Assembly (NCBI GenBank): GCA_905181735.1
Contig: CAJIYR010000008.1
Coordinates: forward strand, 81,876-145,875
Origin: an uncultured Hyphomicrobiales bacterium
Lineage (GTDB): Bacteria; Pseudomonadota; Alphaproteobacteria; Rhizobiales; TMED25
Length of the DNA stretch: 64,000 nucleotides
Reading direction: 5' to 3'
Within the stretch, counting starts at the first letter, position 1. Every line of letters begins with the position of its first letter. Positions 662 to 43,861 of the stretch are shown here, piece by piece. The notes beneath the pieces were generated by a model. It saw only the letters and a list, made by a program, of their open reading frames with translations. It was not told the origin of the DNA and searched no databases. Both the position numbers and the translations under genes were made by a program.

Positions 662-1909
662 ATGCAAGTCGAAATAATCTGTACGGGAGATGAAATACTC
701 AGCGGAAAAATAATTAATTCAAACTTTTCATACATGAGCCGCAAGCTAGAGGAAGTTGGCTTATCTGTTGTTTGGGGGACAACAGTAGGTGACGATAGAA
801 AAGAATTACTTGACGCCTTCGTATTAGCTTCAAAAAGATCTGACGCTGTCATTGTTAATGGTGGACTAGGGCCGACTGTTGATGATCTGTCGCAAGAAAT
901 TGCTGCCGAAGCATCTGGAATGGAATTAGAATTAAGAGAAGATTGGCTTGGTAAAATGGAAAGTTTCTTTACTATGCGCGGTCGAACTATGACAGAAAAC
1001 AATAAAAAACAGGCAATGCTTCCAAGGACGTCGGAATTAATCGACAATCCCGTTGGAACAGCTTGTGGCTTTGCTATAAATATTGGAAAGTCTAGGTTCT
1101 TTTTTACACCAGGAGTTCCACGAGAACTATTTAGAATGCTTGAAAATGAAATTATTCCAAGATTACTCACATTATCTGGAGAAAAAGTAATTACCAAACT
1201 CAAAACATTTCATTCTTACGGTATCGGTGAATCAAGAGCGGATTCAATCTTGAATGAATCCCTTAAACTATCTCCTGATAATATTGTAAAACTTGGATTC
1301 CAAGCTCATTATCCTCAACTTGAAACAAAACTATATATCAAAGCATCATCTTTAGAACAAATAGAAAAAAACCTTAAACCAGTTGAAAATGACATAAGAG
1401 ATAAACTAAATAACTTTATCTTTGCTGAAGACAAGGATACATTGGAAGGCGTTATTATCAGAAAATTAGCAAAAAATAACGAAACCATCGCTATCGCAGA
1501 ATTAAAAACAAACGGAGGAACTGCAGCTCGGTTATCTTCGGAAGATTTTAATGGAGAGATTCTAAAATGTGGAATATTTGCTAATAATATTGAGAATATC
1601 TATGAACAATTTGATATTCAAGAAAAAAATACCTTAGATCTTAAAGGATCTGATATCATTGCTTCGACAATTAGAAAGCTATTTTCTGCATCTTACGGAT
1701 TATCCGTGATAATTAAAAACACTCTAGATAATGAAGCTGAAGCCTACATTTCCCTATCTGACTCAGAGAACATTATATCAAGAATAGGATACTTTGTTGG
1801 AGACGAGCAAAGAATTAGATTAGGTGCAGTTGAGATGGCATTAGATTGTCTTAGGAGGTATCTTCAGGATTTACCGTTTAATGAAAAATCAGATTTTGAA
1901 AAACTGTAA
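662..1909 (+). CDS. cinA: CinA-like protein (MoCF-like/COG1058 N-domain plus degenerate PncC C-domain)
   Basis: 'IICTGDEILSG', 'TVGDD', 'NGGLGPTVDDLS', 'NPVGTACG', 'PGVPREL'; SD GGAGG at 652-656 favours ATG at 662. Confidence 0.85.
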   Translation: MQVEIICTGDEILSGKIINSNFSYMSRKLEEVGLSVVWGTTVGDDRKELLDAFVLASKRSDAVIVNGGLGPTVDDLSQEIAAEASGMELELREDWLGKMESFFTMRGRTMTENNKKQAMLPRTSELIDNPVGTACGFAINIGKSRFFFTPGVPRELFRMLENEIIPRLLTLSGEKVITKLKTFHSYGIGESRADSILNESLKLSPDNIVKLGFQAHYPQLETKLYIKASSLEQIEKNLKPVENDIRDKLNNFIFAEDKDTLEGVIIRKLAKNNETIAIAELKTNGGTAARLSSEDFNGEILKCGIFANNIENIYEQFDIQEKNTLDLKGSDIIASTIRKLFSASYGLSVIIKNTLDNEAEAYISLSDSENIISRIGYFVGDEQRIRLGAVEMALDCLRRYLQDLPFNEKSDFEKL

Positions 1910-1918
1910 ATTTTAACT

Positions 1919-2941
1919 TTATTTTATTTTATTTAATAATATTTCTAGATTTGATGGATCTAGCTTTATTTCACCGCTATGCGTCATCTTTGCGATTTCG
2001 ACAACTGCGTCATTATAAGGCGTTAGGATACCCAATTTTTTTCCTTCTTCCGAAACTCTTCCGTTGATAAATTCAATCTCACTTCTCCTATCCTTAGCAT
2101 GATCTTGAGCGGCATGTGTACGGGCATTAGGGCCAACATCATTAACCATTCGCTTCATGACCAATTCAGCGGCACCTTCTCCAGCATTTCCTATCTCATC
2201 TGTTGTAAGACCGAACAAAGGCTCTATCATATGACCTAAAGCTTGCCCTACTTTAAAAGACTCTTTTCCTACCCCTACAGAGAAATCAAACATACCAGGT
2301 AATTTTATAGCTTCCCAATTTTTAAGATTTAATGATGAGAAAGGACAAGTCATTGAATTAGCGATTAATTTAGTCCATTTAGCTCCATAAACATTATCAG
2401 TAATATCGCAATTGCCAACATGCTTCATTAATGATTGTATCTCTAAAAGTCTTTCGGTTTTTTTGCCATCCAACTCACCAACAGCAAACCACGTCCCTGT
2501 AGGAACGGTATTACGTTGAACAATTCCTGGGATAAAGGCTTCACAGCTTAATTCAACTACAGCCCCTACTGTTCTATCCTTACCAATCATTTCTGCATTT
2601 AAATCATCATTAAACGCATTTTGTAGCCCAATTAGTGTTCCAGTGTCCTTTAAGTAAACACTGGCATACTTTGCCATCCATTGTGTATCATAAGATTTAA
2701 CAGCCATAAATATATAGTCAAACTTTGGTTCAAAAGTAGCCAGATCACTCAGATGAAAAGCATTAACTTTTCTTGTTTTATCTTCCTCTTTGGTAATAAC
2801 ACGTAAACCATCTGATTTTATTTTATTTATATGGTCCGCCCATTGGTCAACCAATATAACGTTACATCCTGCATCGGTCATTGAAGCCGAAACACATGAT
2901 CCTATAGCTCCACCACCCAAGACACATATTTTTTTATTCAT
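1919..2941 (-). CDS. Ketopantoate reductase (PanE/ApbA) family oxidoreductase
   Basis: GGGAIG Rossmann motif, 'AVKSYDT', 'LQN', 'KWTKLIAN', 'SEIEFING'. Confidence 0.85.
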   Translation of the reverse strand: MNKKICVLGGGAIGSCVSASMTDAGCNVILVDQWADHINKIKSDGLRVITKEEDKTRKVNAFHLSDLATFEPKFDYIFMAVKSYDTQWMAKYASVYLKDTGTLIGLQNAFNDDLNAEMIGKDRTVGAVVELSCEAFIPGIVQRNTVPTGTWFAVGELDGKKTERLLEIQSLMKHVGNCDITDNVYGAKWTKLIANSMTCPFSSLNLKNWEAIKLPGMFDFSVGVGKESFKVGQALGHMIEPLFGLTTDEIGNAGEGAAELVMKRMVNDVGPNARTHAAQDHAKDRRSEIEFINGRVSEEGKKLGILTPYNDAVVEIAKMTHSGEIKLDPSNLEILLNKIK

Positions 2942-3000
2942 TGATATTATTATCCCTTTATTAAAATAACTCTACAAACAGAGTATCACAATATGAAATA

Positions 3001-5760
3001 TTATTCAGCTAAGCAAATTTTAGCAGCCGAGAATTTAAATTCTGGTATTTTTGCCACAGGATCAAGTCTTGAACTTGTCAGCACATTGGCAGCTGCTTCT
3101 GTATAACAAAACGGAACAAAAACTACTCCCTCCGGTACATCAGGGTCCTGTCTTGCATTCATTGTTATTTCACCTCGACGCGTTGATATTGTAACTTTGT
3201 TGCCTGGGTATATATTAAATTTCTCCATATCATACTTATTTAAACAAATTATAGGATCCGGTTCAATAGAATTTAATATACTTGCCCTTCTAGTCATTGC
3301 TCCAGTATGCCAATGCTCCAATAGTCGTCCAGTCGTTAATACCATCGGATAGTCATCGTCTGGGGTCTCAGCCGGCGGAACTATAGATGTGGGTACTATC
3401 AATGCTCTACCATCTTTTGTAGGAAAACTATCACCAAACAATATATTTTCACCTTTATTATCTGGAGATAAACAAGGATAGGTAACAGATTCTTCTCTAA
3501 CTAATCTTTCCCAAGTAATGTTATTCAAAGAATTCATGACCTCAGACATCTCTTTAAATATATCTTTTGGATGGGTATAGTTCCAATCAAGTCCAATATG
3601 TTTTGCCAACTCAGTTATGATATACCAATCTTCTTTTGCATCAGCTGGCGGCTTAACAACTTGTCTTCCAATTTGAATTTGTCTATTTGTATTAGTATAA
3701 GTGCCCCATTTTTCTGCATGGGTTGAAGCCGGTAAAATAACATCCGCATTCCAAGCAGTCTCAGTGAGAAATATTTCTTGAACAACAAGGAAATCAAGGG
3801 CAGCAATTGCTTTACGGGTATGTATTGTATCTGGGTCTGACATTGCAGGGTTTTCACCAAGAATAAACATTGCTTTTATATTAGAAGCATGGATTTCATC
3901 GATAATTTCAACTGCTGTAAGGCCGGCTTCATTGCTTAAATCTTTGCCCCAAAATTCTTGATACATTTTTCTAACCAATTCATCTTGAACAGAATTGTAA
4001 TCAGGATATACCATTGGGATAAGACCAGCATCTGAGGCACCTTGCACATTATTTTGTCCACGCAATGGGTGAAGACCAGTTCCATCTTTACCAATATGAC
4101 CTGATATTAAAGCTAATGAGATCAGGCATCTAGCGTTTTCTGTTCCATGCACATGCTGTGAAATTCCCATACCCCAAAATATAATTGATTTATCCGATTT
4201 AGCGTATAATCTTGCAATATCTATGATTACAGATGCATTTATACCGCATATTTTTTCCATATTCTCCGGTGAAAAGTCTTTTGTCTCTTCAACAAGCTCT
4301 TCAAACCCTATTGTTCTATTCTTTATAAAATTAGTATCGTATAATTTTTCTCTGATAATTGTATGTATCATCGCATTTAGCAAAGCCAAATCTTGCCCAG
4401 GTTTAAATTGAACTATATGATCAGCATATTTCGCTAAACCTTGCTTTTGCCCTCTTGGGTCAATCAATATTAATTTTGAACCTTTTTTTATAGCGTTTTT
4501 TATATACGTAGAAGCAACAGGATGGTTTTCTGAAGGCCTTGCTCCAATAACGATAATACAATCTGATTTTAGAGCATCTGTAAATGGAGCTGTTACAGCT
4601 GCAGAATTCAGGGATTCCATTAAAGCAAAAACAGAAGAGGCGTGGCAGAGTCGAGTACAGTGATCTACATTATTAGATATAAATCCTTGCCGAATTAATT
4701 TTTGGAATAAATAAGCTTCTTCATTCGAACATTTTGCGGAACCAAATCCAGCAATGCTTTTGCCGCCGTATTGATCAGATGTTTCTTTTAAATTTTTAGC
4801 AGCCGAACTTAGAGCTTCTTCCCAAGAAGCTTCACGGAAATAATCTTTTATATTAGAATTATCAATCTTGAGATCAAAACTCTTGGTATTTTTATCTATC
4901 CTTATTAGGGGGGTTAGCAATCTATCTGGATGAGATATATAATCAAAACCAAATCTGCCCTTTACACATAAACGACTTTCATTTGATGGGCCATCTCTGC
5001 CATCAATTGATATTATTTTATTACCTTTTACCTTAACATTTGTTTGGCAACCAACCCCACAGTAAGGACACAAAGTATCTACACTTCTGTCTGGATAATG
5101 TTCTCTAACATTTGATTTGTTTAGTAAATTTGATTCCATTAATGCACCGGTAGGGCACACTTGAACACATTCTCCACATGAAACGCATGTCGATTCACCT
5201 AATTCACTATCAAAATCAAATATAATTTTTGACTTACTTCCTCTATAAGCCATGCCAATAACATCGTTAACCTGAACCTCTCTGCAAGCCTGTACACATA
5301 AATTACAATTGATACAAGAATCGAGATTAACTGTAATTGCTTGGTGTGTATTATCAACATCAGGTTTGGATGTAGTTGGAAATCTAGAACTTACATTGCC
5401 ATTAATTGCAGACGCCCATTTTAATAAATTTGATTGAGGATCGTGAACTGATGAATTTTTAGGTTGGTCTGCCATTAGCAATTCAAAGACCATACTTCTT
5501 GCTTTCTTAGACCTGGAAGAATTAGTCTCAATTTCCATACCGTCAGTTGGCTTTCTAATGCAAGAGGCCACAAGATTTTTTTCACCTTTTATTTCAACCA
5601 TGCAGGCTCTGCAATTCCCATCAGCTTTATATCCAGATTGGGTTGAGTAACATAAATGAGGTATCTCTATATCCATCCTTTTGGATATTTCCCAAATAGA
5701 TTCATCTTGAGATGCGGTTACCTCTTGATTATTTATTTTAAATTTTACGTACTTATTGAT
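3001..5760 (-). CDS. fdhA: NAD-dependent formate dehydrogenase alpha subunit (Mo/W-bis-PGD, Cys ligand); proposed ATC start
   Basis: 'IPHLCY..DGNCRACMVE', two CxxCxxC clusters, 'CPYCGVGC', 'NNVDHCTRLCHASS', 'PLRGQNNVQG'; frame extends upstream of 5676 as INKYVKFKINNQEVTASQDESIWEISKR up to a TGA at 5764-5766. Confidence 0.93.
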   Translation of the reverse strand: MNKYVKFKINNQEVTASQDESIWEISKRMDIEIPHLCYSTQSGYKADGNCRACMVEIKGEKNLVASCIRKPTDGMEIETNSSRSKKARSMVFELLMADQPKNSSVHDPQSNLLKWASAINGNVSSRFPTTSKPDVDNTHQAITVNLDSCINCNLCVQACREVQVNDVIGMAYRGSKSKIIFDFDSELGESTCVSCGECVQVCPTGALMESNLLNKSNVREHYPDRSVDTLCPYCGVGCQTNVKVKGNKIISIDGRDGPSNESRLCVKGRFGFDYISHPDRLLTPLIRIDKNTKSFDLKIDNSNIKDYFREASWEEALSSAAKNLKETSDQYGGKSIAGFGSAKCSNEEAYLFQKLIRQGFISNNVDHCTRLCHASSVFALMESLNSAAVTAPFTDALKSDCIIVIGARPSENHPVASTYIKNAIKKGSKLILIDPRGQKQGLAKYADHIVQFKPGQDLALLNAMIHTIIREKLYDTNFIKNRTIGFEELVEETKDFSPENMEKICGINASVIIDIARLYAKSDKSIIFWGMGISQHVHGTENARCLISLALISGHIGKDGTGLHPLRGQNNVQGASDAGLIPMVYPDYNSVQDELVRKMYQEFWGKDLSNEAGLTAVEIIDEIHASNIKAMFILGENPAMSDPDTIHTRKAIAALDFLVVQEIFLTETAWNADVILPASTHAEKWGTYTNTNRQIQIGRQVVKPPADAKEDWYIITELAKHIGLDWNYTHPKDIFKEMSEVMNSLNNITWERLVREESVTYPCLSPDNKGENILFGDSFPTKDGRALIVPTSIVPPAETPDDDYPMVLTTGRLLEHWHTGAMTRRASILNSIEPDPIICLNKYDMEKFNIYPGNKVTISTRRGEITMNARQDPDVPEGVVFVPFCYTEAAANVLTSSRLDPVAKIPEFKFSAAKICLAE

Positions 5761-7423
5761 GGGTCAACTCCGGAAAATACTTAATAATAGAAAGTAGGGG
5801 ATTTGGAGCTGCTTGCCCTAATCCGCATATAGACGCTTCACTCATAACGCTAGCTAAATCATTTAATAATTCTATATCCCATACTTGTTTTTTCATTAAA
5901 TTTAAGGCTTTTTCTGTTCCAACACGACAAGGGGTGCATTGACCACAACTCTCATGCTCAAAGAAATCCATCAAATTTATTGCTATATCCTTTATATTAT
6001 CAGCATCTGATAATATAACAACTGCATGGGATCCTACAAAACATCCGTATTTAGATAAATTATTAAAATCCAAAGGGATATCCGCCAAACGGGATGGGAG
6101 AATGCCTCCTGAAGCACCGCCAGGAAGATATCCTGTAAATTCATGACCCTTCAACATGCCACCTGAATATTCATTAATTAATTGATTAGCAGTTACGCCT
6201 GCAGGCACTATTTTAATGCCAGGATTTCTTACTCTACCGGAAACAGAATAAGTTCTTAAACCCTTAGAACCATTGATACCTTTATTTGCAAACCACTCGG
6301 ATCCATTTTTCAATATCATAGGTATCCAATATAATGTTTCAACATTATTAACTAAGGTTGGCTTGCCAAAAATCCCAACATCAGCAACATATGGGGGTCT
6401 GTGCCTAGGAAATCCTTTTTTTCCTTCAATGGATTCAATCATTGCAGACTCCTCACCACAGACGTAAGATCCAGCTCCACGCTTAATCTCTATTTCTATA
6501 TTCTTATTAATTCCACTTTTTTCAAGCTCCTTTATCTCATTCTTTAATATCTGTAATGCTGCTGGATATTCATCTCTAATGTATATGTATATTTTCTCAG
6601 CTTTAACAGTCCAAGCAGCTATTAACATTCCCTCTATGAATGAGCATGGATTATTCTCAAGATAATATTTATCCTTAAATGTTCCAGGCTCCCCTTCATC
6701 GGCATTAACGGCCAAATATTTTGGTCCATCTTTTTTTAATAAAATTTCCCATTTAACTCCTGTTGGAAAGCCAGCTCCACCTAATCCTCTAAGATTCGCA
6801 TCTTTTAAAATAGATATTATCTGCTCATCTGTAATTGTGCCATTTAAACAATTTTGGAACACAGTATACCCTGAATCTTTAACATATGCAGCGTGGTTTA
6901 TATAATTAGGGATAGAAAGTTTATGGTTATCGTTATTAATATGTGCGTTAACTTTTTCTTGCGTTGCTGATTCGATATGCAGCTTATTGACCTCACAAAC
7001 AGGTGCTTTGTCACACCTACCCATGCATGGAGCCTTTACCACTCTATAACCAGAAGCAGATGATTCCTTTAAATCATTATATAGATTTTCGCTATTAAAC
7101 ATATGGCATGTTACAGAATTACAAACTCTAATAGTCTGAACAGTTAACCTGTCATCTAAATCAGAAATAATGTCAAAATGAGCATAAAATGATGCGACTT
7201 CTAATGTTTCGGCCATTGGTATGCGTAACAAATCAGCTAGTGCATGCAAATTACCATAGGTAATGCAATGAAACTCATCTTGAATTAGATGAAGATACTC
7301 TATTAAGTCCTCCCTCTTATATATAGACAACCCCAGAAAATTCGATATTTCTTCTCTCTCAGAATCTTTTAGTAGCCGACCTTTTGTATAACCTTTTTTA
7401 GGTTTATCTTTATCGCGCATCAT
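5753..7423 (-). CDS. NAD-dependent formate dehydrogenase beta subunit (fused NuoE-like 2Fe-2S and NuoF-like FMN/NADH domains)
   Basis: 'VCNSVTC..APCMGRC', 'LRGLGGAGFPTG', 'NADEGEPGTFKD', 'GAGSYVCGEE', 'ESCGQCTPCR', 'SICGLG'. Confidence 0.92.
   Translation of the reverse strand: MMRDKDKPKKGYTKGRLLKDSEREEISNFLGLSIYKREDLIEYLHLIQDEFHCITYGNLHALADLLRIPMAETLEVASFYAHFDIISDLDDRLTVQTIRVCNSVTCHMFNSENLYNDLKESSASGYRVVKAPCMGRCDKAPVCEVNKLHIESATQEKVNAHINNDNHKLSIPNYINHAAYVKDSGYTVFQNCLNGTITDEQIISILKDANLRGLGGAGFPTGVKWEILLKKDGPKYLAVNADEGEPGTFKDKYYLENNPCSFIEGMLIAAWTVKAEKIYIYIRDEYPAALQILKNEIKELEKSGINKNIEIEIKRGAGSYVCGEESAMIESIEGKKGFPRHRPPYVADVGIFGKPTLVNNVETLYWIPMILKNGSEWFANKGINGSKGLRTYSVSGRVRNPGIKIVPAGVTANQLINEYSGGMLKGHEFTGYLPGGASGGILPSRLADIPLDFNNLSKYGCFVGSHAVVILSDADNIKDIAINLMDFFEHESCGQCTPCRVGTEKALNLMKKQVWDIELLNDLASVMSEASICGLGQAAPNPLLSIIKYFPELTHQ
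5768..5771 (-). promoter_or_regulatory. Shine-Dalgarno GGAG 7 nt upstream of proposed ATC start of FDH alpha
   Basis: Minus strand reads GGAG-TTGACCC-ATC-AAT-AAG. Confidence 0.6.
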
Positions 7424-7488
7424 ATTTTACATACTTTTTTGATTAAAATTATATAAGGTCAATATAAATCTTATAAACTAAAATCTAA

Positions 7489-9165
7489 TTAAAACAAACC
7501 TTCTATATTTCCAGATATATCTAATTTTATAGATTCTGCTGCAGGCTTTCTTGGAAGACCTGGCATTGTCATTATGTCACCAGCAATAGCAACTATAAAA
7601 CCTGCACCAGCAGATAGCCTGACATCTTTTATTTCGATTTTATGCCCAATAGGTGCATTTTTTAATTTTGGATCTGTAGAAAAAGAGTATTGTGTCTTAG
7701 CCATACATACAGGGAAATGACCATACCCCAAATTCTCCCAGTCTTTTAGTTGATTGATAACTTTTACTGAGAGAAAAACTTCAGAAGCTCTGTATATATC
7801 TGTAGTTATCTTTTTAATTTTATCTACTAACAACGTATCATTATCATAAAGCAAATTAAAGTTTGAAGCGTCTTCGTCACAAATCCTAACAACTTCCTTG
7901 GCTAAGACCTCTATACCCTCGCTTCCATCAGACCAGTGAGATGCAATAATTACCTTGCAATCAAAATCTTTTAATCTCTTGGACACAATGTCTAATTCCG
8001 AATCTGAATCTTTGGTAAACTTATTAATAGACACGACCACCTCTACACCAAATTTTCTCATATTATCAATATGCTGAATTAAATTATCACATCCCTTTTC
8101 TACAGCCTTAACATTCTCTGTCCCTAAATCTTTTACTGTGACACCACCATGCATTTTTAATGCTCTAACCGTAGCAACAATAACAACCGCAGATGGTTGA
8201 ACTCCCATACTCCTGCACTTAATATCAAAGAATTTCTCAGCACCTAAATCAGCCCCAAAACCAGCTTCGGTAACAACATAATCTGCCATCTTTAATGCCG
8301 TATCTGTAGCAATTACAGAATTACAACCATGGGCTATATTTGCAAAAGGACCACCATGAACAAAGGCAGGGTTATTTTCTAGAGTTTGCACAATATTTGG
8401 CATAAAAGCATCCTTTAACAAAACTGCCATTGCATCATTTGCTTTTATTTGCCTTGCGGTTACAGGTTTTTTATCTCTTGTGTAAGCTACAACTATGTTT
8501 CCTAACCTTTCGGTTAGATCTTCAAGATCATTTGCTAGACAGAATATAGCCATAACCTCCGAAGCAACTGTTATATCAAATCCATCATTTCTAGAAAATC
8601 CATTGGAAACACCCCCAAGAGAAGAAACTATTTCTCTAAGAGCTCTATCATTCATATCAACAACTCTCCTGATCACAACACGTCTTGTATCTATGTTTAA
8701 ATCATTCCCCCAATATACGTGATTATCAACCATCGCGCACAACAAGTTATGAGCTACGCCAATTGCATGAAAATCTCCGGTAAAATGTAAATTGATATCT
8801 TCCATCGGGATAACTTGTGCCTTGCCCCCTCCGGCCGCTCCACCTTTCATACCAAAACATGGTCCTAGAGAAGGCTCTCTAATGCATATAAGCGCTTTTT
8901 TTCCTATTTTATTTAATCCGTCTCCTAAGCCAACGGTTGTTGTTGTTTTTCCTTCGCCTGCAGGAGTCGGTGTAATGGCAGTAACTAAAATAAGTTTACC
9001 TTTTTTATTGCCTTTAATTTTTTTAATAAAATCTTCTGATATCTTTGCTTTATATTTTCCGTATAGAGACAACATATCAGACGGTATTCCAATATTATTT
9101 GCAACATCTGTAATAGGCTTTATATTAGCTTCTCTCGCTATCTCAATATCTGTTTTAACTACCAT
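7489..9165 (-). CDS. fhs: Formate--tetrahydrofolate ligase
   Basis: '[11 protein letters not shown]', 'GGAAGGG', '[11 protein letters not shown]', '[10 protein letters not shown]', 'AKTQYS', 'MTMPGL'. Confidence 0.97.
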
Positions 9166-9189
9166 TTATTTTCTTTCGTATTTGCATTG

Positions 9190-10098
9190 CTATTCAAATT
9201 TATCGCCAATTTTTATTTTATTATCTTTAATGTAATCATTAGCGGATATTTTTTCTTTATTTACCCTTACTTTTTTTACAAGTATAGAATCTTGACCTGC
9301 TCCAACTACAATTCCATCATTATTTATATTGATTATTTCTCCAATATTTCCAGTCAATTCTATATATGCAGCATCATAAATTTTAACTTCAACATCGTTA
9401 AATGAAGTCCATGCCCCGGGCTGTGGATTGCTCGCTCTTATTTGATTATATATAGAGCGTGCAGAATTAGACCAATCTATTTTTGATTCAAGCTTACCAA
9501 ACCACGATTCATAGCTACCATCATTTCTTTTCTGGTATAATTTTGGTGCAATGCCCATTTCAACCAATTCAATCGACTCTGCTATAGCTTCAAGGCCTAA
9601 CGGAAATAACTTATTAAAATACAATGACCCTAAAGTATCATCGGAATCAATATCACAATATTTTTGCAATAAAACAGGGCCTGTATCAAGTCCGTCATCT
9701 GGCCAAAATATTGTTATTCCAGTTTTTGTTTCACCGCTATATATCGGCCAATTGATTGACGAAGGTCCTTTATGCATTGGTAAAATGGAAGGATGATATT
9801 GGATTGTCCCATATTTAGGTTCATCTAATATAGCTTTTGGGACCATCAACAAAACATAAGCCATTACGCATAAGTCCGCTTCAAATGATTTTATTTTCTC
9901 CAATGCCTCTGGGTTCTTCCAACTTGAAGGTTGGTAGACTGGCAAACCCTTTTCTCTTGCTAGCTCAACAAGCGGATCAACTTTTAAATTTTCTATATCT
10001 GGAGCCGAACATACTGCAACAATATTTTTATTGTTTTCTAATAAATTCTCTAAGACCGCTTTACCAAAAGCTTGTTGCCCATGTAAAATAATTTTCAT
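9190..10098 (-). CDS. Formyltransferase-fold protein resembling the ALDH1L (10-formyl-THF dehydrogenase) N-terminal domain
   Basis: 'HGQQAFG', 'IQYHPSILPMHKGPSSINW', 'IFWPDDGLDTGPVLLQK', 'LFPLG', C-terminal FMT domain 'IRASNPQPGAW'. Confidence 0.85.
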   Translation of the reverse strand: MKIILHGQQAFGKAVLENLLENNKNIVAVCSAPDIENLKVDPLVELAREKGLPVYQPSSWKNPEALEKIKSFEADLCVMAYVLLMVPKAILDEPKYGTIQYHPSILPMHKGPSSINWPIYSGETKTGITIFWPDDGLDTGPVLLQKYCDIDSDDTLGSLYFNKLFPLGLEAIAESIELVEMGIAPKLYQKRNDGSYESWFGKLESKIDWSNSARSIYNQIRASNPQPGAWTSFNDVEVKIYDAAYIELTGNIGEIININNDGIVVGAGQDSILVKKVRVNKEKISANDYIKDNKIKIGDKFE

Positions 10099-10109
10099 AA
10101 AAAACTCAC

Positions 10110-11366
10110 TTATTTATCGCCCAATGCACCAGAAGATTGTATTAAATTTATTTCTTCCTCATTATAACCAAGAAGGTCTTGTAATATTTCAATATTGTGC
10201 TCACCAAGCAATGGAGATCTTTCAACCTCAACCGAGGATTCTGAGAGTTTAATAGGGCAACCAACTGATAAATACTTTCCTCTTTCCGGATGATCTATTT
10301 CAACAATAGTTCCTGTATCACGCAAAGATTGATCTTCAGAAATCTCTTTCATAGATAAAATTGGTCCACATGGAATGCCTTCTGGATCACACAACTCAAT
10401 AACTTCATACTTTGTCATTGTTTTTGTCCAATCTTCTATGGTTTTAAAAATTTCAGTCAATTTGTCCAATCTTGAAGCCGGCGTACTATAACCTTTATCA
10501 GTTATCCATTCTGGTTTATTGATTAATTTACATATCTTTTCCCAAACTGGCGCTTGGGTTATAAAATAAACGTATGAATCAGGATCGCTTTCCCAACCTT
10601 TACATTTTAAAATCCACCCAGGTTGACCTCCCCCAGAATCGTTCCCAGCACGGGGAACCGAGCTACCAAATGGTATATCTTTCCCATATTGGCTATATTC
10701 AGTTAAAGGACCTTTTTCAAGGCGTTGTTGATCCCTTAATTTAACACGACAAAGATTGATTACACCATCCTGCATTGAGGCTGTAACTTTCTGTCCTTTT
10801 TTAGTCTTCTCCCGCTGAAACAATGCAGTAACAATCCCTAACGCAAGATGCAAACCTGTTCCAGAATCACCAATTTGTGCGCCAGTAACTAAAGGAGGTC
10901 CATCTAAAAATCCAGTAGTCGATGCTGCTCCACCTGCGCATTGAGCTATATTTTCATAGACCTTGCAATCCTGATAAGGTCCGGGTCCAAAGCCTTTTAT
11001 GGATGCAACAATAATCTTATCATTAAGTTTTTGTATATATTCCCAAGGAAAGCCCATTCTATCAAGAGCCCCTGGTGCAAAATTTTCAACCATTACATCG
11101 GATTTTGCAATAAGATCCTCCAAGACCTTCTTACCCTGAGCTGTTTTTGTGTTGAGAGTTATAGATTTTTTGTTATGGTTTAGCATGGTAAAATATAAGG
11201 AATCAACATTATCAATATCCCTTAACTGACTTCGTGTCGCATCTCCAGTTCCTGGGCGCTCTAATTTTATAACATCAGCACCAAACCATGCTAGCAATTG
11301 AGTGCAAGTAGGTCCTGACTGTACGTGAGTAAAGTCCAAAATTTTTATACCCTGCAGAGCTTTCAT
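10110..11366 (-). CDS. frc: Formyl-CoA:oxalate CoA-transferase (class III)
   Basis: '[22 protein letters not shown]', 'DSLYFTMLN', catalytic Asp in '[10 protein letters not shown]', glycine loop '[11 protein letters not shown]'. Confidence 0.95.
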
Positions 11367-11387
11367 TCTAAATTACTTTCGTTAACT

Positions 11388-13115
11388 TTATTTATACATT
11401 GTTTGTGATTTTGTTCCAGGTGCGTATTCGTTGGGATCAACCCATATGTTTACAACAACAGATTTATTCTCTTTTTTTACGAAATTTCTTGCCAATATTA
11501 ATGATTCTGCAATTTTGTCAGATTCCGTAACATCTATTCCAAAGCCACCCCAAATATTCGGGAATACAGCAAAATTCATATCACCTAATTTATTAGCAAT
11601 ATTTCCTCTTTGAGGCCCATATTTTGATAACTGCCCATATCTAATTTGATTCATGGATGAATTGTTTCCTATTACAGCGATATAAGGAGCACCAAATCTA
11701 TCTGCAGTTTCCATATCAAAAGCTGTCATACCAAAGGATCCGTCTCCATAATAACAAAGAACTTCTTTATGAGGATCTGCTAATTTTGCAGCGATAGCGA
11801 ATCCAGTGCCAACACCCAAGCTTCCCAACGCGCCAGGATCCATCCATTGACCCGGAGATTTTGGCCTAACTGCTTGAGCGGAGATAGTAACAACATCTCC
11901 CCCATCACCAATAAATATTGTATCCTCATTCAAGAAATTATTAATCTCATAAGCTACTCGATAAGGATGGATAGGGCTATTGCTTGATGTGAATAATGGC
12001 AATAGTTTTTCATACTTAACTTTTTCAATATCTCTAAGCTTACTTATCCATGAAGTTCGTTTATTTTTAATCTCAGAACCAATGCTATCTGGCAATAGGC
12101 CACTAATTTGCTTTAAAATAGTTCCCGGATGACCAACAAGACCAATATCAATATCTCTATTTTTTCCTAAAGTTCCATAATTTTGATCAATTTGAATTAG
12201 CTTAACATTCTCCGATATTCTCTTGCCGTACCCCATTCTAAAATCAAAAGGTGTACCAACTATAATTATTACGTCAGCTTCCTTGAATGCATCTGATCTC
12301 GTTCTGTCAAAACAATATGGGTCATTATTATTAATCATCCCCCTACTGGCACCATTAGCATAGGATGGTATCATCGCTTTTTTTATAAATTCAATAGCTT
12401 CATTATGACTTCTTGAACTCCACACTTGTTGTCCAAACAAGATTGCAGGCCTTTCGGCTGCAGATAATATCTCAGCAACTTTTATAATATCCTGAGGGTC
12501 ACCAGAACTTTTAATTGAAGCTCTGTATGAACCAGGCTTAGGAATAACAACAGATTCCAAAGGTATCTCTTTATCCAAAATATCACGCGGAATTTCTAAG
12601 TAAGACGGACCATAAGAACCGTTAAAACATTCTCTTGCTGCCATAGTAACCATATCAGCAATTCTTTCCGTCGACATAACAGTGGATGCAAATTTTGTTA
12701 TCGGCTTTACAATATCAACGTGAGGCAAATCTTGCAAACCACCCATCTTCCATTGACTGAGAGAACTCTGACCTCCAATATGCAAAACAGGACTTTCGGA
12801 TCTATAGGCTGTCGCGATACCAGTTATTGCATTTGTAAACCCTGGACCTGCAGTTGTGACGACACATCCAAGTTTTCCAGTCTGTCTCGCATAGCCATCT
12901 GCAGCATGCGCCGCAGTTTGCTCATGCCTTACATCAATTATTCTTATCCCCTCATCAATACATCCATCGTATATATCTATAATGTGCCCGCCACATAGGG
13001 TAAAAATAGTATCAACACCCTCGTTTTTTAATGCTTTAGCAACTAAATGTCCTCCAGAGATCATAGAACCGTCAGTTGTTTTTTTCTTTAATATATCTTT
13101 TGTGCTTATGCTCAT
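11388..13115 (-). CDS. TPP-dependent enzyme, oxalyl-CoA decarboxylase / 2-hydroxyacyl-CoA lyase-like (non-canonical Oxc)
   Basis: 'TLCGGHI', 'DVRHEQTAAHAADG', 'QDLPH', 'YLEIP', TPP motif 'GDGSFG...GNN'; directly upstream of frc. Confidence 0.8.
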   Translation of the reverse strand: MSISTKDILKKKTTDGSMISGGHLVAKALKNEGVDTIFTLCGGHIIDIYDGCIDEGIRIIDVRHEQTAAHAADGYARQTGKLGCVVTTAGPGFTNAITGIATAYRSESPVLHIGGQSSLSQWKMGGLQDLPHVDIVKPITKFASTVMSTERIADMVTMAARECFNGSYGPSYLEIPRDILDKEIPLESVVIPKPGSYRASIKSSGDPQDIIKVAEILSAAERPAILFGQQVWSSRSHNEAIEFIKKAMIPSYANGASRGMINNNDPYCFDRTRSDAFKEADVIIIVGTPFDFRMGYGKRISENVKLIQIDQNYGTLGKNRDIDIGLVGHPGTILKQISGLLPDSIGSEIKNKRTSWISKLRDIEKVKYEKLLPLFTSSNSPIHPYRVAYEINNFLNEDTIFIGDGGDVVTISAQAVRPKSPGQWMDPGALGSLGVGTGFAIAAKLADPHKEVLCYYGDGSFGMTAFDMETADRFGAPYIAVIGNNSSMNQIRYGQLSKYGPQRGNIANKLGDMNFAVFPNIWGGFGIDVTESDKIAESLILARNFVKKENKSVVVNIWVDPNEYAPGTKSQTMYK

Positions 13116-13161
13116 TGTAAAAACCCAATACTATTAAATATTTTGATACAGATATGATGAA

Positions 13162-13476
13162 TTATTTTACAGGAGAGAAATTAGCTCCAACCATTATCTT
13201 GTCTTCTTGTGCGGTAATCATACCAGCAATCTTTTGTCTATAAACAGCCCATTCTGGATCTGCATCTCTTTTTTCTCTAAGGACTTCAAACTCTTCCATG
13301 TTTTTATATTGCCATATATGCACAACCTGATTCAACTGCCCTACTTTACTGATAAAGTATGCAACCAATTGTAGTCCGTGTTTTTGCGCAACCGGGTTAG
13401 CAACAGTCTCAAATATATCAACATATGCATTCATTTTACCTGGTTGTATTGTATACGTTCTGTGGTCAAATATCAT
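13162..13476 (-). CDS. NIPSNAP family protein
   Basis: 'DHRTYTIQPG', 'GQLNQVVHIWQY', 'DPEW'; SD AAGGAG upstream. Confidence 0.85.
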   Translation of the reverse strand: MIFDHRTYTIQPGKMNAYVDIFETVANPVAQKHGLQLVAYFISKVGQLNQVVHIWQYKNMEEFEVLREKRDADPEWAVYRQKIAGMITAQEDKIMVGANFSPVK

Positions 13477-13595
13477 TTATCTTCTCCTTGTTTAAGAATC
13501 TAGTATAATAGTATTAAAATCAATATAAAAGTTTTTTATATAAGTAAATTTTATTATAGGATATTCTATCATTATTTGGGGAGATATCTATAGCA

Positions 13596-14798
13596 ATGGA
13601 TTTTAATCTAAGTGCAAAACAAATTAATTTACAATCGCTTGCAAGGGTATTTGCAAGGGAAAATATAAGACCACGAGCTAAAGATCTTGATAAAAATCCT
13701 GATCCTAGCCAATCGTGGCCTTATGATCTATTTGAAAAAGCATCAAAATTAGGTCTGCGTACCTTAAAGATCCCAAAAGAATTTGGTGGCCAAGGAATTG
13801 ATACACTAACCGAGTTAATTGTTTTAGAAGAATTATGTGTTGGTGATATATCCTTTGGATCAAGTCTTGCTCATCCTTGGAGAGAAGGATTAATTTTAGC
13901 TTCTGCAACAACCAACGAACAAAGAGAGCTATTTCTAAAACCTTTCTTAGAAGACCATAATGCAATGACCTCTATTGGTATAACGGAATTACATTCTGGA
14001 AGTGATAATGCCACCGGTTATGATAAAGAATTAAAAGCAGGGTCTATGACCGAAGCTATTTATGATGGTTCGGAATGGGTACTAAATGGTCGAAAAATAT
14101 TTATAACAGCAGGGAATGTTGCTCAATTTATGCTTGTGGTAGCACGAACAAATAAAAAAGTTTCCTGGAAAGAAGGAATTTCAATTTTTATAGTACCAAC
14201 AAATACAAAAGGCTATCAGTGCATTAGGGTTATGGATAAATTAGGAATGAGAGTAAATCCAAACACGGAGGTTGTGTTTACCAATTGCAGGGTTCCTAAA
14301 ATTAATCTTATTGGCGAATTAAATAATGGTTATAGTATTTTATCAAAATACGGCGCATCTTCAAAAGTAAAAGAAGGGGTAAAATCATTGGGAGCAGCTA
14401 GAGCTGCCTACGAAGAAGCTCTGAACTGGTGTCAAAATCGTCATCAAGGTGGCAAGAAACTAATAGAGCATCAATCAATTGCTCATTGTCTTGCAAGAAT
14501 GGCTGGTAAGATAGAAGCTTGCAGATCTTTGTGCTGGAGAGCTGGATGGTCAATTGATCACGACCCTATTAACGCAATTCCATTACAAACTATTGCGAAA
14601 ATAGAAACATGTGAAATGGCGGCGAAAGTTGCCGTAGAAGCTTTGGAGCTATTTGGTGGATATGGAGTTTTGAAAGAATATCCAATCGAAAAGATTGCGA
14701 GAGATGCTATTACAATGCTGCATACTACTGGAGGCCAATTGGCACTCACTTCGAGTTTAGCTGAACAACTAAATTTTATAACTAAAAAAAATGAATAA
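13596..14798 (+). CDS. Acyl-CoA dehydrogenase family flavoprotein (atypical)
   Basis: 'MDFNLS', 'ITELHSGSD', 'WVLNGRKIFIT', 'DKLGMR', 'RHQGGK', 'FGGYG..EYPIEKIARDA'. Confidence 0.88.
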   Translation: MDFNLSAKQINLQSLARVFARENIRPRAKDLDKNPDPSQSWPYDLFEKASKLGLRTLKIPKEFGGQGIDTLTELIVLEELCVGDISFGSSLAHPWREGLILASATTNEQRELFLKPFLEDHNAMTSIGITELHSGSDNATGYDKELKAGSMTEAIYDGSEWVLNGRKIFITAGNVAQFMLVVARTNKKVSWKEGISIFIVPTNTKGYQCIRVMDKLGMRVNPNTEVVFTNCRVPKINLIGELNNGYSILSKYGASSKVKEGVKSLGAARAAYEEALNWCQNRHQGGKKLIEHQSIAHCLARMAGKIEACRSLCWRAGWSIDHDPINAIPLQTIAKIETCEMAAKVAVEALELFGGYGVLKEYPIEKIARDAITMLHTTGGQLALTSSLAEQLNFITKKNE

Positions 14799-42991: not shown

Positions 42992-43861
42992 TCAAAATAA
43001 ATTAACCTTTTTACACCAATATTCAGGATAAGCGTTGACAATACAATCATACGCCTTGTCCAAATACTCTAGATCTTCATATAATCCAAAACAAGTAGCG
43101 CCGCTTCCAGACATCCGTGAAACTATACATTTATCTGTTTTTTGAATTGCAAGCAATATTGTGTTTATTTCAGGCTCTAAAGAACAAGCTATATCTTGTA
43201 AATCATTTTTACCGTTGACAATAAATTCCAATAAATTTTTCTGCTTATCTGGGGCAACTGAATTATTACTATCTGCATCTATTGAATTATTTAATTTCCT
43301 CATTGAAAAAACTTTTTTGGTAGATATTTCTTTATTCGGATTAACCAATAGAGCAGAAAATTTAATATCATTATTCAATGGCTGTATCTTTTCACCTGTA
43401 CCATGCAGAAATAATAGCTTTGAAAACAAACAAGCGTTAACATCCGATCCAATAGAATTTGGAATACCAGATTCTTTAATTTCGCTAACTCGATTATTGT
43501 TAATGTTACACAAACCTCTAAAGATCGCAGCTGCGTCAGCAGAACCACCACCTAAACCAGCTGCAATTGGTATATTTTTATCTAGTTTATATAGATAATA
43601 ATTCGAACCAGGATAAAGACTTCTATATCCATAATCACTTTTAATAATAAGGTTATCTAAGCTAGAAATAACACCATTAACATTACTTTTTATAAGAAGC
43701 TCAGTTTTTTGGTTTCTATAAAAATCTATTGAATCGTATAAATCAGTAAATGCAACTATACTGTTAATATTATGAAGGCCGTTTAAAGCTTTATCAAAAA
43801 CATTTAAAGTTAGATTTATCTTAGCAAATGCTTTTTCTGTATGTATAATTTTATTGTGAAT
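42992..43861 (-). CDS. ispE: 4-diphosphocytidyl-2-C-methyl-D-erythritol kinase; proposed ATT start
   Basis: Manual translation upstream of 43513 gives 'EKAFAKINLTLNV..GLHNINSIVAFTDLYD..DNLI..KNIPIAAGLGGGSADAA' with no stop until TAG 43868-43870; C-terminal 'NDLQ', 'MSGSGATCFG'; 289 aa. Confidence 0.92.
   Translation of the reverse strand: MHNKIIHTEKAFAKINLTLNVFDKALNGLHNINSIVAFTDLYDSIDFYRNQKTELLIKSNVNGVISSLDNLIIKSDYGYRSLYPGSNYYLYKLDKNIPIAAGLGGGSADAAAIFRGLCNINNNRVSEIKESGIPNSIGSDVNACLFSKLLFLHGTGEKIQPLNNDIKFSALLVNPNKEISTKKVFSMRKLNNSIDADSNNSVAPDKQKNLLEFIVNGKNDLQDIACSLEPEINTILLAIQKTDKCIVSRMSGSGATCFGLYEDLEYLDKAYDCIVNAYPEYWCKKVNLF

Follow-up and report, generated by a model that had tools for sequence, protein, structure and literature searches.

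The N-terminal domain of ALDH1L, the 10-formyltetrahydrofolate (10-formyl-THF) dehydrogenase, uses the residues His106, Ser108 and Asp142 to transfer the formyl group of 10-formyl-THF to the thiol of 4'-phosphopantetheine, an arm also carried by coenzyme A (CoA) (PMC6802093). Two further enzymes are described or proposed to use CoA itself. LctF, from the lactacystin pathway of Streptomyces lactacystinicus, converts 10-formyl-THF and CoA to formyl-CoA and tetrahydrofolate (THF) in vitro (PMC11730586, 2025), and HypX's N-terminal domain has been proposed, from its structure, to move formyl from 10-formyl-THF to bound CoA through a His/Asp pair (PMC6802093). Here we consider a stand-alone formyltransferase of 302 amino acids (aa) that is encoded between frc (formyl-CoA:oxalate CoA-transferase) and fhs (formate-tetrahydrofolate ligase) in an uncultured Hyphomicrobiales bacterium. 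The stretch of DNA analysed, referred to as the window, is 64,000 nt long (CAJIYR010000008.1, 81,876-145,875), and coordinates given below are window positions. By analogy with the systems above, we propose that the 302-aa protein is a reversible formyl-CoA:THF formyltransferase (formyl-CoA + THF <-> 10-formyl-THF + CoA), a reading to which we give a probability of about 0.68.

An earlier reading made from the letters of this DNA (the original prediction) had placed the protein closer to ALDH1L than to Fmt, the methionyl-tRNA formyltransferase, and a phmmer search against PDB sequences agrees. The best matches are the N-terminal domains of ALDH1L1 and ALDH1L2 (4qpd at 1.7e-58 and 201.5 bits; also 2bw0, 1s3i and 7rlu), with 33-41% identity over approximately 245-300 residues, compared to 2.2e-44 and 155 bits for Fmt (1fmt), while ArnA (1e-20) and HypX (3.4e-14) are weaker matches. 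The AlphaFold2 model of the protein (pLDDT 89.4) has the same two-subdomain fold as the ALDH1L N-domain (TM-score 0.82-0.86). Its His102, Ser104 and Asp138, which are invariant in 18 homologues, correspond to the ALDH1L residues His106, Ser108 and Asp142; the two proteins also have in common the Y-H-P-S...I-N-W and GLDTG motifs, and both lack the basic insertion of Fmt. However, ALDH1L is a three-domain protein, in which the formyltransferase is joined to a carrier-protein-like linker and an aldehyde dehydrogenase (ALDH) domain, whereas the window protein is bacterial, stands alone, lies in an oxalate operon and has free CoA as its presumed acceptor. The 120 nearest homologues listed are likewise short (251-307 aa), and ALDH-domain proteins appear only at 32-41% identity, the named ones being from animals.

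The other two systems are alike in different respects. LctF is a stand-alone Fmt-like formyltransferase that carries out the reaction proposed here, but the likeness is one of described reaction and not of sequence; moreover, LctF belongs to secondary metabolism, where it feeds a polyketide synthase loading module, its published description as available gives no Frc or Fhs partner, and the assay described there is in the formyl-CoA-forming direction only (PMC11730586). The N-domain of HypX/HoxX (6j0p), which serves synthesis of the CO ligand of [NiFe]-hydrogenase, has the same superfamily fold, but is distant (3.4e-14, TM-score 0.69, 18-19% identity) and is fused to an enoyl-CoA-hydratase-like decarbonylase, with CoA as a bound prosthetic group and formyl-CoA decarbonylated instead of released. 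The statement in the original prediction that no described enzyme does this does not, therefore, hold in view of LctF, which makes formyl-CoA from 10-formyl-THF and CoA in vitro (PMC11730586), and of the proposal for the HypX N-domain (PMC6802093). The reaction is already known from LctF, and proposed for HypX; no published account was found that places the 302-aa family, or a step of this kind, in oxalate metabolism or in central one-carbon metabolism. A literature search, whose coverage left subscription journals outside, found no description of such an enzyme in oxalate metabolism, and the available text of a 2024 review of oxalotrophy contains no such step (PMC13409138).

The gene lies in a closely packed row on the minus strand, the members of which are, in gene order:

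13162..13476, minus strand: NIPSNAP-family gene, 104 aa (Pfam NIPSNAP, 8.1e-27), 46 nt upstream of the ThDP enzyme gene
11388..13115, minus strand: thiamine diphosphate (ThDP, or TPP) enzyme of the Oxc/HACL group, 'type A' (Pfam TPP_enzyme_N, _M and _C)
10110..11366, minus strand: frc, formyl-CoA:oxalate CoA-transferase, 418 aa (TIGR03253, 710.1 bits, cut-off 504.2; Pfam CoA_transf_3)
9190..10098, minus strand: stand-alone formyltransferase of the ALDH1L N-domain type, 302 aa (Pfam Formyl_trans_N 5.5e-31, Formyl_trans_C 8.5e-22)
7489..9165, minus strand: fhs, formate-tetrahydrofolate ligase, 558 aa (NF010030, 900.7 bits, cut-off 652)
5753..7423, minus strand: NAD-linked formate dehydrogenase beta, a NuoE/NuoF-like fusion (Pfam 2Fe-2S_thioredx, Complex1_51K, NADH_4Fe-4S)
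3001..5676, minus strand: formate dehydrogenase alpha, molybdopterin-containing (TIGR01591, 763.4 bits, cut-off 666)
1922..2941, minus strand: ApbA/PanE-family reductase (TIGR00745, 123 bits, under the cut-off of 141), 59 nt past fdhA on the same strand

Read directly in the sequence, 11 nt separate the frc stop codon from the ATG of the 302-aa open reading frame (ORF) and 24 nt separate its own stop codon from the fhs ATG, and the motifs GQQAFG, IQYHPSILP, INW, IFWPDDGLDTG and LFP are all found in its translation. The original prediction was correct on these points, and also in seeing no acyl carrier protein (ACP) or ALDH partner nearby and no CoA ligase in the cluster: no ACP or ALDH gene is present among the 57 window ORFs of at least 90 aa, and Pfam and NCBIfam profiles identify no CoA ligase among the operon genes. 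From the NIPSNAP gene to the ApbA/PanE gene the intergenic gaps are 46, 21, 11, 24, 65, 76 and 59 nt, and because none between 1922 and 13476 exceeds 76 nt, the operon has no space for a further gene. The fhs of the window is the only copy in the genome of this organism (G000; 1.39 Mb, 97.7% complete), which has a single PF01268 match.

To our knowledge, the textbook oxalate pathway, consisting of Frc and oxalyl-CoA decarboxylase (Oxc), is a closed thioester cycle for which no start, refill or drain is stated outside YfdE of E. coli. The Frc/decarboxylase cycle would regenerate its own formyl-CoA, with a net thioester input and output of nil and, because it is closed, a second enzyme would be needed for any loss or gain of thioester. 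We propose that the formyltransferase, together with Fhs, could be this link. The CoA thiol would be the formyl acceptor or donor throughout the 302-aa family, which we infer from context and by analogy: the phosphopantetheine arm is also that used by ALDH1L, free CoA is used by LctF in vitro, and HypX is proposed to use CoA. Fhs would interconvert 10-formyl-THF, ADP and inorganic phosphate (Pi) with formate, ATP and THF, and the two reactions would sum to an ADP-forming formyl-CoA synthetase (formate + ATP + CoA <-> formyl-CoA + ADP + Pi), making the pair a valve between the Frc/decarboxylase cycle and the ATP pool. In the supply direction, formyl-CoA would be made from formate and ATP, whether for starting the cycle, for making good what is lost by hydrolysis or for offsetting withdrawal of oxalyl-CoA. 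Reduction of oxalyl-CoA to glyoxylate would be another drain on the cycle. In the drain direction, surplus formyl-CoA would be converted to formate and ATP if oxalyl-CoA is formed by a route that bypasses Frc, such as one from glyoxylate, in which Frc would have no acceptor acid for the surplus.

There is some background for both directions. Formyl-CoA has a half-life of 1.9 h versus 29 h for oxalyl-CoA, and E. coli YfdE is described as 'priming' the Frc/Oxc cycle (PMC3720670). In C. necator, glyoxylate is reported to be converted to oxalyl-CoA by an ApbA2/PanE2-type enzyme and then to pass through Oxc and Frc (preprint 10.1101/2020.05.08.083683). The physiological direction in the window organism could be either supply or drain, as sequence cannot decide between them, and the gene content of the genome leans towards dissimilation without fixing it. 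Specifically, glyoxylate carboligase, GlcD and PurU all lack a match over cut-off in the genome (the best for PurU, at 107.9 bits against 286, is PurN), a malate synthase domain and a canonical Oxc are likewise not found, and FolD and six family-III CoA-transferases besides Frc are encoded. Counting Frc, there are seven family-III CoA-transferases in these 1.39 Mb, and eight ThDP enzymes related to acetolactate synthase or Oxc, which are many for the genome size.

The 302-aa family is large: 7348 of 8000 scored candidates match at E <=0.001, with the top 120 being 56-99% identical, and in the species-genome collection the number of matching stretches is estimated at 2200. Culturable carriers among the homologues include Filomicrobium insigne (L022), Rhabdonatronobacter sediminivivens (L029), Aurantimonas marina (L050) and Breoghania sp. 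L-A4 (P0013). Gene order was compared in the 80 best genome loci, which come from Alpha- and Gammaproteobacteria, a locus being counted as having room if it offered at least 1400 nt for frc or at least 1900 nt for fhs. Linkage of homologues to these genes, which the original prediction had made a point of survey, is found for both. A frc gene lies on the same strand no more than 1 kb upstream in 71 of the 72 loci with room (75/80 raw; the miss is the locus L063), and fhs often follows, no more than 1 kb downstream, in 48 of the 65 with room (52/80 raw). Clustering of ORFs identifies as recurrent neighbours a GntR/FCD regulator (37 loci), the transporter parts TctA, TctC and TctB (30, 26 and 25 loci), a ThDP enzyme of two kinds, a SucCD-like ligase (16/13) and PanE-like genes (9). 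By their gene content, the related loci are oxalate-utilisation clusters.

A similar picture is obtained when whole genomes are compared. Among 301 genomes of the window's class, evenly drawn, the 302-aa family is present in 23 and Frc over cut-off in 26, with both in 21 (an unpublished genome, G240, is included in all three counts). Of the 275 genomes in which Frc does not reach its cut-off, only two carry the family, and their assemblies are fragmented: the gene is at a contig edge in G143 (81% complete), and G283 is in 600 contigs and has a Frc-like gene of 396 bits. Frc occurs without the family in five genomes, G270, G069, G120, G166 and G250, of which the last two are 74-75% complete. 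The two genes are adjacent in 14 of the 21; in the other seven they are on different contigs or 10 kb apart and still co-occur, and fragmentation may hide some adjacency in these. Fhs is found in 22 of the 23 carriers.

Further evidence comes from gene fusions, which were surveyed in 99 longer homologues. Formyltransferase-Fhs fusions of about 880 aa make up 42 of these, P0121 having a Pro/Ala-rich linker, and 50 are ALDH-domain carriers of the ALDH1L type. In the genome G167, formyltransferase and Fhs share one 966-aa open frame. P0160, a 920-aa protein from a eukaryotic transcriptome (EukProt), is a formyltransferase-Oxc fusion, the Oxc part scoring 586.8 on NF006721 against a cut-off of 557. 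Fusions to an enzyme of 10-formyl-THF (Fhs) and to a maker of formyl-CoA (Oxc) are what a link between formyl-CoA and 10-formyl-THF predicts. Among the remaining longer homologues are P0157 and P0165, in which only the formyltransferase domains were recognised, and P0219, which has Fmt and rRNA methyltransferase-type domains. P0157, which is eukaryote-derived and 688 aa long, begins with an unrecognised half of about 350 aa that is membrane-associated in appearance, followed by the formyltransferase. Three apparent Frc-formyltransferase fusions, P0156, P0158 and P0218, start inside Frc and cross Arg/Pro-rich stretches that look intergenic, with P0156 and P0218 also decaying within or after the formyltransferase part, and all three were read as frameshifted or read-through calls and not counted. 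The formyltransferase parts of P0158 and P0218 belong, together with P0221 and P0223, to a second subfamily, about 45% identical, that keeps HGQQAFG and has Y-E-G-R-C-G for Y-E-S-W-F; in the two read-through calls this subfamily also follows a frc gene.

In one of the genomes with Frc alone, G270, the place of the formyltransferase and Fhs is taken by another enzyme. Its row of ThDP enzyme, Frc, slot, FdhB and FdhA is 70, 72, 52 and 60% identical to the corresponding window proteins, and the slot (L096:5979-8105) encodes a 709-aa ADP-forming acyl-CoA synthetase (ATP-grasp_5, CoA_binding, Succ_CoA_lig, Ligase_CoA_2). Across 80 metagenome loci of this synthetase (L099-L178, 80-88% identical), it stands beside frc in 31 of the 32 that have room (at least 4.3 kb upstream), with frc directly upstream in 17 and a divergent frc-ThDP pair no more than 3.5 kb away in 14. 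A formyltransferase homologue is present in 3/80 of these loci and Fhs in 0/80, and conversely the synthetase is in 0/80 formyltransferase loci. We read the presence of the synthetase in place of formyltransferase and Fhs as an analogous displacement, because the net reaction proposed for the latter pair is of the reaction class of ADP-forming acyl-CoA synthetases. From its context, the synthetase may be an ADP-forming CoA ligase for oxalate or formate, and a literature search on ADP-forming enzymes and oxalyl-CoA found no description of it. In G069, another genome with Frc alone, frc is next to a second family-III CoA-transferase in an arrangement resembling that of YfdE in E. coli. YfdE (acetyl-CoA:oxalate CoA-transferase, ACOCT) and the synthetase would be functional analogues of the formyltransferase-Fhs pair and not homologues; each lies by frc or oxc and can feed thioester to the Frc/Oxc cycle, but their folds and chemistry are unrelated to those of the pair.

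The operon is also represented in RNA libraries, 19 runs of which hold part of the window. In four seawater or aquatic metatranscriptome runs, from four studies, contigs, almost all of which are 99% identical or more, reach 28-30 of the 30 bins of 1800-13700. The contigs bridge the junctions PanE-like gene/fdhA, fdhA/fdhB and fdhB/fhs, and also fhs/formyltransferase (run X3), formyltransferase/frc (X2 and X3) and frc/ThDP enzyme/NIPSNAP gene (X1), with the caution, which joins those set out in the next paragraph, that RNA-library contigs may include DNA and that a contig over two genes is not proof of one transcript. The NIPSNAP gene, which is also upstream in the related loci L006, L020 and L039, is likely to be the first gene of the operon. 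In all four runs the contigs end at 13476-13481, which is 0-5 nt before its start codon, and three have adapter sequence there; this is a weak hint that the position may be a transcript 5' end and the NIPSNAP gene nearly leaderless. Depth differences and a few uncovered bins in the contigs were not interpretable. A scan of 1500-14000 gave 58 promoter-like sites (51.8 expected) and 6 terminator-like sites (6.7 expected), in neither case with enrichment, and because of this was not used to set the limits of the operon.

A number of observations count against the reading we prefer. The acceptor proposed for the 302-aa family comes from context and analogy, and of the two enzymes that lend it CoA, HypX is only weakly alike (3e-14, TM-score 0.69) and LctF was compared by its description only. 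The solved ALDH1L N-domains are deposited as 'hydrolase', and thus plain hydrolysis is possible. Turning to gene context, fhs is missing downstream in 17 of the 65 loci with room, 15 of which have the type A ThDP enzyme, and G240 is the one carrier without Fhs. Two loci from Rhodobacterales metagenome-assembled genomes, L063 and L076, have the formyltransferase after a GntR/FCD regulator, with a divergent SucCD-like ligase and with no frc, ThDP enzyme or fhs. Strict mutual exclusion of formyltransferase and synthetase was considered and rejected, since despite the counts at individual loci (0/80 and 3/80) both occur in the genomes G084 and G240, in which the synthetase adjoins frc. The fold was similarly rejected as a subfamily criterion, as ALDH1L and Fmt structures match the model equally well (TM-score 0.82-0.92 over both).

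The phylogeny is to be weighed with the same care. Quick maximum likelihood trees were built from 27 rows of the 302-aa family (fusions included), 11 ALDH1L domains and 7 Fmt, leaving out ArnA, HypX and LctF. Rooted on PurN (46 rows), the 302-aa family is next to ALDH1L and apart from Fmt with an SH-aLRT (a Shimodaira-Hasegawa-like approximate likelihood ratio test) of 99, and rooted on two other paralogues (47 rows) it groups with ALDH1L with an SH-aLRT of 100. However, the approximately unbiased (AU) test does not reject a grouping of the family with Fmt using the other-paralogue root (p 0.142), and with the PurN root this grouping has p 0.824 and the constrained tree scored above the free search. 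PurN was set aside as an outgroup, its very long branch and the AU test's preference for a tree missed by the free search making the rooting unreliable. In an exhaustive search of cluster representatives, which returned 949 proteins at E <=1e-30, a wide range of stand-alone proteins, approximately 300 aa long and without the insertion, lies between the 302-aa family and canonical Fmt. Sisterhood of the family with ALDH1L is therefore favoured but not secure.

The alternative that survives best, although we consider it unlikely, is that the protein formylates some other acceptor encoded elsewhere, which could be a protein-bound phosphopantetheine as in ALDH1L, an amine, a sugar nucleotide (as for ArnA) or another thiol. 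Acceptors do vary within the Formyl_trans_N/C superfamily (tRNA, sugar nucleotides, glycinamide ribonucleotide and carrier proteins), and the occurrences without frc in L063 and L076 and without Fhs in G240 would fit such a role. However, the short gaps of the operon leave no space for a carrier-protein or ALDH gene, none is recurrent in the 80 loci, and all the recurrent enzyme partners handle formyl-CoA, oxalyl-CoA or 10-formyl-THF.

Next in order, and in our view improbable, is that the protein hydrolyses 10-formyl-THF and is thereby functionally analogous to PurU, in which case it would provide formate from the folate pool, without CoA, for the formate dehydrogenase of the operon. The neighbouring Fhs already turns 10-formyl-THF into formate with a gain of ATP, which hydrolysis would waste. 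Moreover, while the deposition of the nearest solved relatives as the 'hydrolase domain' of 10-formyl-THF dehydrogenase, the lack of a PurU over cut-off in the genome and the formate dehydrogenase genes downstream are all compatible with a hydrolase, it would leave unexplained the link to frc (71/72 loci and 21/23 genomes), the formyltransferase-Oxc fusion and the fact that an ADP-forming acyl-CoA synthetase can occupy this slot.

The name under which these proteins are deposited suggests a third alternative, as every source name on the homologues among the top 120 reads 'methionyl-tRNA formyltransferase'. Domain architecture, similar length, fold (TM-score 0.87-0.92 to Fmt) and pipeline name are indeed common to Fmt and the window protein, and TIGR00460 (fmt) is its top NCBIfam match; nonetheless, at 172.7 bits it is under the cut-off of 201.5. 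It is also under the cut-offs for PurU (TIGR00655, 20.4 bits against 286) and PurN (TIGR00639, 46.9 against 150). The original prediction had called for a separate def-linked fmt elsewhere in the genome, and there is one, in a def-fmt-truA cluster on contig C6, whose product is over cut-off at 259.8 bits; similarly, all five other carriers tested have their own Fmt over cut-off, and their copies of the 302-aa family score 139-183 bits on TIGR00460. Alignments show a basic N-domain insertion, P-x-R-x-x-G-R-G-x-K...S-P-V, in every Fmt row, whereas neither ALDH1L nor the window protein and its homologues have it. This insertion loop has a role in tRNA recognition. Where Fmt has N-x-H (N-[VIL]-H), the window protein, its relatives and ALDH1L have (Q/I)-Y-H-P-S...I-N-W (Q-Y-H-P-S in the window protein, thus without the Asn), and the net charge of the C-domain is 0 (N-domain -9) versus +1 to +6 in four Fmt sequences, although this is a crude measure. 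Given the sub-threshold score, the canonical def-linked Fmt elsewhere, the missing insertion, the altered motif, the neutral C-domain and a catabolic operon in which the gene has no link to def, we regard a second methionyl-tRNA formyltransferase as very improbable.

If the proposed formyl-CoA:THF formyltransferase is correct, the family would be the missing thioester step in many Alpha- and Gammaproteobacteria and would connect activated formate bound to CoA with that bound to folate, a link that genome-scale models would miss when the protein is named 'methionyl-tRNA formyltransferase'. Synthetic pathways for the assimilation of formate or formyl-CoA are also in want of a natural route between these two compounds that is ATP-coupled and reversible, and the presence of the operon in seawater RNA libraries suggests that the step may count in marine oxalate or glyoxylate turnover. 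More tentatively, and with the odds in our opinion against it, formyltransferase and Fhs might together be a widespread reversible ADP-forming formyl-CoA synthetase of marine and soil Proteobacteria, sometimes as one 880-aa protein, that gains ATP from formyl-CoA by substrate-level phosphorylation and in reverse makes formyl-CoA from formate; it would have arisen as an analogue of the ADP-forming synthetase that stands in its place by frc in other lineages. Were this so, the formyl-CoA would come from cleavage of oxalyl-CoA or 2-hydroxyacyl-CoA, as when glyoxylate or glycolate is oxidised via oxalyl-CoA.

The ThDP enzyme upstream of frc differs between loci. In the related loci type A is about 70% identical to that of the window (28 loci) and type B about 25% (39 loci), so that 28 of the 67 have type A in place of type B, which is Oxc-like. 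The formyltransferase is followed by fhs in all 33 type B loci with room versus 11 of 26 type A loci. The window enzyme itself is under the NCBIfam cut-offs (in brackets) for PRK05858 at 417.6 (587), HACL at 344 (600) and Oxc at 236 (557) and 220 (739), and its best PDB match is an actinobacterial 2-hydroxyacyl-CoA lyase (7pt3, 264 bits), followed by the Oxc of E. coli (183) and of O. formigenes (145). It is predicted to be a source of formyl-CoA but not a canonical oxalyl-CoA decarboxylase, and a search of the genome found no canonical Oxc.

At the other end of the operon, the ApbA/PanE-like reductase is a weak candidate for an oxalyl-CoA reductase or CoA-acylating glyoxylate dehydrogenase. 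Orthology with the PanE-like gene that trails the formyltransferase in L009 was considered and rejected, as the identity between the two is only 24%. Elsewhere in the window, the match to IspE of a 173-aa ORF at 42995-43513 on the minus strand is confined to the C-terminal half of the profile (positions 138-292 of 294); another frame may encode the N-terminal half, or the start codon chosen may make the ORF too short.

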